Of a DNA stretch of 64,000 nt, positions 23,841 through 24,281 are shown in pieces (positions within the stretch are counted from its first letter, which is position 1; each line of letters begins with the position of its first letter). The notes below the pieces were generated by a model. It was not told the origin of the DNA and made no database searches. It saw only the letters and a list, made by a program, of their open reading frames with translations. Made by a program: the position numbers and the translations under genes. The stretch lies in NCBI RefSeq assembly GCF_003334785.1, contig NZ_QOWV01000001.1. One strand, 5' to 3'. This DNA comes from Escherichia coli. Its GTDB lineage: Bacteria > Pseudomonadota > Gammaproteobacteria > Enterobacterales > Enterobacteriaceae.

Positions 23841-24281
23841 AACTTTTCCTTTATTCATCGCATGGACAATACGTACGCTTGAGATCAGGATTGTCTACTT
23901 TGAGTATAACATCCTTGTGAAATCTCCCTTTCCTCATACCGCTTGCACTATATACTGCGGGTAGGAAAGGCGCGCAGAGGGAAATATAAGATTGTTAACT
24001 ATCCCCCTCTGGAAATACGACTTGTGAGCACAAGATAAATCTTAGCAAAATACAAATTAAAGATAAGGAAATTGTTACGAAAGCTATTAATTATTGTTGG
24101 TAATATAGTTTCAAGTGGTACTATAACTGGCTGTTAAATGGCATTTATAACTATTAGGTGCAGAGATATTCGCTTAAATGGATTAGTTTCTTTGTGGAAA
24201 AGTAACTGATGTTATAATGTATGATGTTGACTATTGCACTATTCCAATAAAACCAGTCAGCTTTAAACAAGCAGCGTCATA

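Follow-up and report, generated by a model that had tools for sequence, protein, structure and literature searches.

In Escherichia coli K-12 an IS1 element lies upstream of gfcA, and silencing of the operon gfcABCDE-etp-etk has been ascribed to it, as described in two publications (PMC2516531, PMC12428005). An initial annotation of a 64,000-nucleotide stretch of E. coli DNA (the window), made from the sequence alone, placed this insertion between gfcA and cspH and described the corresponding spacer of the window as about 440 bp of AT-rich, non-coding DNA with neither transposase nor IS1. It proposed that the operon might be transcriptionally competent, that the strain belonged to a non-K-12 lineage with a partly decayed capsule pathway, and that an alignment to K-12 would serve as a check. 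The locus raises the question of what the uninterrupted spacer represents, and whether an operon that retains it can be expected to be expressed.

The gfcA-cspH spacer and its empty IS1D site

The spacer measures 441 bp, has a G+C content of 35.4% and is non-coding. It is bounded by the start codon of gfcA at 23840 and the stop codon of cspH at 24282-24284, both on the minus strand (Table 1). No transposase open reading frame (ORF) was present inside it, all ORFs of at least 20 aa within the spacer being 21-38 aa long, and a BLAST search of the whole 64-kb window with the IS1D element of K-12 returned no match and no IS1-like sequence. The description given in the initial annotation was accurate in each of these respects.

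Alignment with K-12 (NZ_CP011343.2) divided the window into two blocks, 1-23873 and 23865-64000, which overlap by 9 bp. Between the two blocks K-12 carries 768 bp annotated as 'IS1-like element IS1D family transposase'. The 9-bp overlap is the target duplication, since GACAATACG flanks IS1D on both sides in K-12 and is present once in the window. The IS1 position given for K-12 in the initial annotation was thus borne out by the alignment, in agreement with the literature, and the window has the empty site. The flanks of the K-12 gfcA::IS1D allele are nearly identical to those of the window (3 mismatches in 1200 bp); the alleles differ in that K-12 has the 768-bp IS1D, the duplicated GACAATACG and a full-length etk, whereas the window has neither the element nor the duplication, and a shortened etk.

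The window spacer lies between co-oriented cspH and gfcA with no inserted element, and its full length (441/441 bp) aligns as one piece to thousands of genomes. Its position, its length of 441 bp and its IS-free state are shared with the upstream region of gfc (ymc) outside K-12, as in EPEC O127 and EHEC O157 (Peleg et al. 2005, cited in PMC2516531 and PMC3366997). Identity to the O157:H7 spacer was 93.7% overall, and the proximal 110 bp were identical. The window nevertheless carries a phylogroup-A/K-12-like allele, 2 SNPs away from the flanks of K-12, and differs from the EPEC and EHEC regions by a SNP at 24031, within an RcsB-box-like site, and by the truncated etk that ends the operon.

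Table 1. Features of the gfc locus in the window, and insertions found in the same spacer in other strains, in window coordinates.
Feature	Position	Strand	Description
etk reading frame	16126-18306	-	V121E and amber codon 690
etp	18326-18772	-	intact, protein identical to K-12
gfcE	18760-19899	-	intact, protein identical to K-12
gfcD	19945-22041	-	intact, protein identical to K-12
gfcC	22041-22787	-	intact, protein identical to K-12
gfcB	22784-23428	-	intact, protein identical to K-12
gfcA	23535-23840	-	inner membrane protein of 101 aa, rich in threonine; same sequence as K-12 GfcA
gfcA-cspH intergenic spacer	23841-24281	-	control region upstream of gfcABCDE-etp-etk, with no insertion
Predicted 5' leader of gfcA	23841-23896	-	about 56 nt; transcription start at about 23897-23894, placed from the -10
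Empty target site GACAATACG	23865-23873	+	within the predicted leader, 24 nt before the gfcA ATG
Predicted extended -10 TGTTATACT	23903-23911	-	9/9 columns invariant in six Escherichia sequences
Dyad IR2 (CCTTTCC ... GGAAAGG)	23927-23970	-	conserved, just upstream of the -10
Dyad IR1 (CAGAGGGRRAU ... AUUUCCCUCUG)	23975-24011	-	11-12 bp stem, 13-15 nt loop, conserved
Candidate RcsB-box-like site	24031-24044	-	TAAGATTTATCTTG in the window; centre about 140 bp upstream of the predicted start
cspH	24282-24494	-	70 aa, co-oriented upstream neighbour of gfcA
IS1D (K-12 allele)	23865-23873		K-12; non-laboratory ABW_A19 and FDN-9
IS1, opposite orientation	23888-23895		STO_Bone1B
IS3	23945-23947		ML35
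IS1B with deletion through gfcA into etk	24018		PSS-13
IS1	24034-24042		E70
IS5-family ISKpn26	24041-24045		PK6

We then determined how common the uninterrupted state is. Of the 3611 complete E. coli genomes with the locus, 3206 had an unbroken match to an 80-bp probe centred on the insertion site; of the 3718 complete genomes with the spacer, 3481 kept 80% or more of its length as a single piece. The site was also uninterrupted in E. albertii and in Escherichia sp. MOD1-EC7003. The K-12 gfcA/IS1 junction occurred in at most 480 genomes, and the junction genomes listed include the laboratory K-12 strains XL1-Blue, DH5alpha, J53 and EPI300. Most genomes thus keep the ancestral, uninterrupted spacer, and it is K-12, with a few relatives, that is peculiar in having the IS1 insertion. 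That peculiarity has already been published, and the empty site of the window is the known wild-type state. Because it is both ancestral and in the majority, an empty site is not remarkable and says merely that the strain is not K-12. We therefore read window positions 23841-24281 as the gfcABCDE-etp-etk control region in its ancestral form, free of IS elements, with a probability of roughly 0.85.

Two further observations were made in the genome survey. In about 1700 of the 5426 complete E. coli genomes the gfc spacer is missing and cspH adjoins appA, so that a large part of the species lacks the whole gfc-etk operon. Separately, the IS1D insertion of K-12 was found, with site and transposase protein unchanged, in the non-laboratory strains ABW_A19 (waste water) and FDN-9 (chicken), the latter being 5 SNPs from K-12 in 24.8 kb. 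The IS1D allele is therefore not confined to laboratory K-12.

A predicted promoter, leader and upstream elements

Conservation within the spacer was analysed in an alignment of six sequences, comprising the window, three divergent E. coli alleles (including O157:H7), E. albertii and Escherichia sp. MOD1-EC7003. A degenerate pattern for the gfcA start, run against one genome per species, matched two loci only, so that conservation across species is that of these six sequences. Invariant columns made up 39-50% of the cspH-proximal 180 bp (24281-24100), 84% of the block 24050-23964, and 54 of the 56 columns (96%) at 23896-23841, the last 56 nt before the gfcA ATG. The difference between these 56 nt and the distal spacer (82/182 invariant, about 45%) was highly significant (Fisher p = 2e-13).

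Immediately upstream of this segment lies TGTTATACT, which consists of TGn followed by a hexamer close to TATACT, as in an extended -10 element. TATACT, at 23908-23903, is the sole -10-like hexamer on the gfcA strand that combines 5/6 matches with an upstream TG and full invariance. This hexamer is the -10 sequence preferred by sigma-S. No -35 could be recognised for the predicted promoter, and a scan of the minus strand of the spacer for consensus sigma-70 promoters found no site; it missed TGTTATACT because there is no -35. A Shine-Dalgarno sequence, AGGA, is present at 23850-23847, 6 nt before the gfcA ATG. Going by conservation, we lean towards TGTTATACT as the gfc promoter and the 56 nt as its leader. 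In the literature on gfcA we found neither a mapped transcription start nor data on rpoS dependence.

Other roles for the conserved segment were also considered. The RNA fold of the predicted leader was not better than those of shuffled sequences (z = +0.66), and a structured riboregulator in the leader was dropped since the fold was not significant. An Rfam scan of 23000-25500 at E <= 1 gave nothing in the spacer; outside it, the cspA thermoregulator matched the 5' UTR and coding start of cspG at 24624-25046 on the plus strand (159 bits, E = 5e-43), and a sub-threshold STnc220 match was seen at 25149-25229. A 28-aa ORF at 23937-23851 on the minus strand overlaps the promoter and leader, and its changes are mostly synonymous in E. 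albertii and two E. coli alleles. It was rejected as a gene; MOD1-EC7003 lacks the start and has an in-frame stop, and the ORF would start upstream of the predicted transcription start. An in-frame upstream ATG at 23858 (107-aa ORF) was likewise rejected as the start of gfcA, having no Shine-Dalgarno sequence, while the annotated ATG has AGGA.

Two conserved dyads, IR2 and IR1, lie upstream of the -10. The sequence of the inner stem of IR2 differs among E. coli, E. albertii and MOD1-EC7003 with pairing kept, and folding of IR2, both by alifold and as single sequences, gave -17 to -21 kcal/mol. Neither dyad is a typical terminator, because a U-tail is absent, and neither is a dispersed repeat.

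Further upstream, K-12, O157:H7, the other two undeleted E. coli alleles aligned, E. albertii and MOD1-EC7003 all read TAAGATTTATCTTA at 24044-24031, a perfect match to the RcsB box consensus TN(G/A)GAN4TC(T/C)NA (PMC7913699). The SNP at 24031 (plus strand C in the window, T in K-12) breaks the last position of the box, so that the window reads ...TCTTG, and no perfect match to the consensus was found in the 64-kb window. In the 19.7-kb K-12 locus the perfect matches number one, which is near the chance expectation of 0.66. A 23-bp deletion in NCCP12480 removes the site altogether. A search of the literature found no direct study of gfcA with RcsB, H-NS or RpoS; in published data, ymcD was only +1.48-fold changed in an rcsB-disrupted O157 isolate. 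We therefore treat the RcsB-box-like sequence as a candidate only, a lead suggested by its match to the consensus. The two dyads and this palindrome, about 140 bp upstream, would probably bind regulators.

Taken together, these elements suggest how the operon could be read. Transcription would start near 23896, about 7 nt downstream of the extended -10 TGTTATACT and with no -35, at a type of promoter that would be used well by sigma-S and also by the sigma-70 holoenzyme. The transcript would pass through the near-invariant 56-nt leader with its AGGA into gfcA. The IS1D of K-12 would then interrupt this leader at about positions +23 to +31, past the promoter proper and ahead of the ribosome-binding site, and would separate promoter from operon by 777 bp, which is consistent with the reported lack of expression. 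The predicted promoter and leader of the window are contiguous with gfcA, so that transcription would be possible.

Expression of the operon, truncated Etk and the sigma-S peak of K-12

The gene order and spacing from gfcA to etk are as in the annotated K-12 operon. Pfam families YjbF, GfcC, YjbH, Poly_export, LMWPc and Wzz/AAA_31 were identified on a public contig with 1 mismatch to the window in 16,250 bp. The seven genes differ from those of K-12 by two bases only, both in etk. One results in V121E (window 17945) and the other changes CAG to TAG at codon 690 (Q690*, window 16237-16239), which confirms the amber mutation that the initial annotation had read in etk. Its further claim of a partly decayed capsule pathway holds to the extent that six genes of this group 4 capsule export operon are intact and the seventh, etk, carries the TAG codon. 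The capsule would consist of O-antigen repeats, and the O-antigen (rfb) locus is not part of the window. The amber allele was in none of 5426 complete E. coli genomes, the 2946 with the stretch all being one mismatch away, and was found on at least six public contigs.

The product would be an Etk of 689 aa instead of 726 aa. The last 37 residues, QAGVNIKGAILNGVIKRASTAYSYGYNYYGYSYSEKE, are lost, including 7 tyrosines; with them go the final part of the crystallised kinase-domain construct (PDB 3cio) and all seven tyrosines of the tail. Over residues 1-689 the protein equals K-12 Etk, part of which is the crystallised 3cio, except for V121E. Unlike the Wzc/Etk BY-kinases, which have a C-terminal tyrosine cluster (PDB 3cio, 7nhr), it is without residues 690-726 that hold this cluster. 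The tyrosine-rich tail is the substrate of autophosphorylation, and in the homologue Wzc autophosphorylation has been reported as a requirement for capsule assembly (PMC3366997). Because this substrate is lost, Etk Q690* is probably non-functional for capsule export, and export is probably defective whatever the promoter does. Loss of the tail and of the last strand of the kinase core is one point change that would argue for an impaired pathway; absence of the last consensus base from the RcsB-like box would be a second.

An uninterrupted spacer and an expressed operon need not go together. According to PMC2516531, etk of K-12 has been reported to be functional, or to have phenotypes, under some conditions despite the IS1; the equation of IS1 with silence is therefore not absolute. 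Conversely, EHEC is reported to have about 30-fold less gfcA mRNA than EPEC and no visible capsule (PMC3853201), although its spacer is intact and has the proximal sequence of the window, so that an intact spacer is no guarantee of expression. It is quite conceivable, if not our first choice, that the operon of the window is silent or very weakly expressed anyway, being dependent on activators or growth conditions and having a mutated RcsB-like box, in which case the word 'uninterrupted' would have no phenotypic meaning. The EHEC data point in this direction, as does the SNP at 24031, which abolishes the one perfect match to the RcsB box in the region, invariant in the other undeleted sequences aligned; the decay of etk suggests relaxed selection on the pathway. 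Against this, the RcsB box is putative and about 140 bp from the predicted start, a single perfect match in 19.7 kb is close to chance, and the core promoter and leader of the window are identical to those of every other allele examined, including those of capsule-proficient lineages. The operon of the window may be transcriptionally competent, in the sense that its upstream sequence would permit transcription. In sum, transcription appears possible, the export machinery is probably defective owing to Etk Q690*, and a candidate activator site is mutated.

A published genomic SELEX study bears on the position of the promoter. Shimada et al. reported a peak for the reconstituted RNA polymerase-RpoS holoenzyme, with an intensity of 167.2, at MG1655 map position 1,049,830, 'insB > < cspH' (PMC5493296). 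Only one of the 218 peaks exceeds it, and none of those listed within intergenic spacers does; it was classed as type C, that is with no gene downstream (PMC5493296), which is because IS1D intervenes. The paper's own table bounds the peak to about 23849-23977 of the window. With the MG1655 coordinate of cspH as anchor for the conversion, the peak centre would fall at about 23926, about 20 bp (20-60 bp) from TGTTATACT, in an assay that used K-12 DNA in vitro, has a resolution of about 100-300 bp and gives no strand. RNA polymerase readily binds AT-rich DNA, and this tempers the reading of SELEX peaks. Binding of the RpoD holoenzyme has also been described in K-12, at the short spacer between gfcA and insA (PMC3946193). 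In our own reading, the orphan RpoS-holoenzyme peak of K-12 would be the gfc promoter, severed by IS1D from the genes that it served.

The functional promoter might instead be located upstream of TGTTATACT, in the stretch from the RcsB-like box to IR1, or gfc might be co-transcribed with cspH, with IR1 and IR2 as RNA structures of a long leader. A scan of the minus strand of the spacer found no terminator after cspH, so that transcripts running on from cspH, or from a distal promoter, could contribute. Both dyads are conserved hairpins, IR2 keeping its inner stem paired while the sequence varies between species, and the block 24050-23964 is 84% invariant, all of which would suit a long transcript. 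However, every other -10-like hexamer falls short in match or in conservation (GATAGT, at 24003, is variable in every species), the centre of the SELEX peak is nearer to 23926 than to 24040, and the fold of the whole spacer was no better than those of shuffled sequences (z = -1.24). We consider such an arrangement unlikely and retain TGTTATACT as the preferred promoter.

Insertions in other strains and the relation to K-12

Among the complete genomes, the spacer was found to carry insertion sequences of the IS1, IS3 and IS5 families at no fewer than six different positions (at least six; Table 1). In a 24-kb search seven top matches were split, those of PK6, ML35 and FDN-9 within this spacer and the other four with inserts of matching size. 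The spacer looks like an IS hot spot, an impression drawn from the individual strains inspected. Similar AT-rich regions that are hit by insertion sequences lie at bglR and upstream of flhDC, an analogy drawn for gfc in PMC2516531. Insertions at bgl and flhDC activate a silent operon, whereas the gfc insertion of K-12 lies downstream of the predicted promoter and is reported to silence. The window itself has no insertion, unlike the bglR and flhDC cases.

Tentatively, and with less assurance than for the promoter assignment, the spacer may be viewed as a compact, strongly constrained module in which an RcsB box and two dyads precede a sigma-S-type extended -10 and an invariant leader of 56 nt, and as a recurrent target of IS1, IS3 and IS5. 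The orphan RpoS peak of K-12 would then mark a decapitated gfc promoter, and the group 4 capsule would have been repeatedly switched off by proximal insertions, or rewired by distal ones (24018-24045), in commensals. The lineage of the window may have come to the same end through the etk amber codon and the SNP in the RcsB box.

Over 64 kb the window differed from K-12 by 21 SNPs and 1 indel, in addition to the absent IS1D, which corresponds to 99.97% identity. The single indel is an extra G at window 54780, inside efeU; the frameshift that makes efeU a pseudogene in K-12 by RefSeq annotation is absent from the window. The only nonsense change among the 21 SNPs is etk Q690*. Eleven of the SNPs are non-synonymous (for example torS Y29D, appC N214D, appA L220F, and yccE I88T and V342A), and SNP positions include window 29413, 12475 and 15370. 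Contigs from three public runs (ERR4899511, SRR3885710 and SRR28811438) showed 0-1 mismatch to the window over 8-16 kb and share its spacer and the amber allele of etk. Because such near-identical contigs occur in three public runs, the window belongs to a real, repeatedly sampled lineage. Judged by its sequence, the strain is a natural one and very closely related to K-12, being neither a derivative of it nor a distant lineage. The proposal of a non-K-12 lineage thus stands as regards K-12 itself, with no efeU frameshift and 21 SNPs, and has to be qualified by the extreme closeness of the two strains.

That the window comes from a K-12 derivative whose IS1D was lost, either through precise excision or in the making of an engineered IS-free chassis, would fit the 99.97% identity and the identity of the gfcA-gfcE and etp proteins to those of K-12, but we reject it as effectively refuted by the SNPs (21, scattered over 64 kb), by the intact efeU, which is frameshifted in all K-12, and by the presence of the same allele set in three unrelated public sequencing runs, and the absence of the etk amber codon from every complete genome, IS-free K-12 derivatives in RefSeq included, and an empty site common to all other lineages and E. 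albertii speak against it as well. The ancestral empty site is therefore retained as the explanation for the window.

The finding as first given is of very little import, and shows the window to come from an E. coli that resembles K-12 without being K-12 and whose gfc upstream region is normal. It carries the caution that conclusions on gfc and etk expression drawn from K-12 are not transferable to strains like this one, and the converse caution that an intact promoter region here does not amount to a working capsule, Etk being truncated. The prediction of a promoter and leader, the explanation offered for the orphan sigma-S peak of K-12 and the recurrent IS hits are modest new leads, which could guide experiments on the control and loss of group 4 capsule expression.
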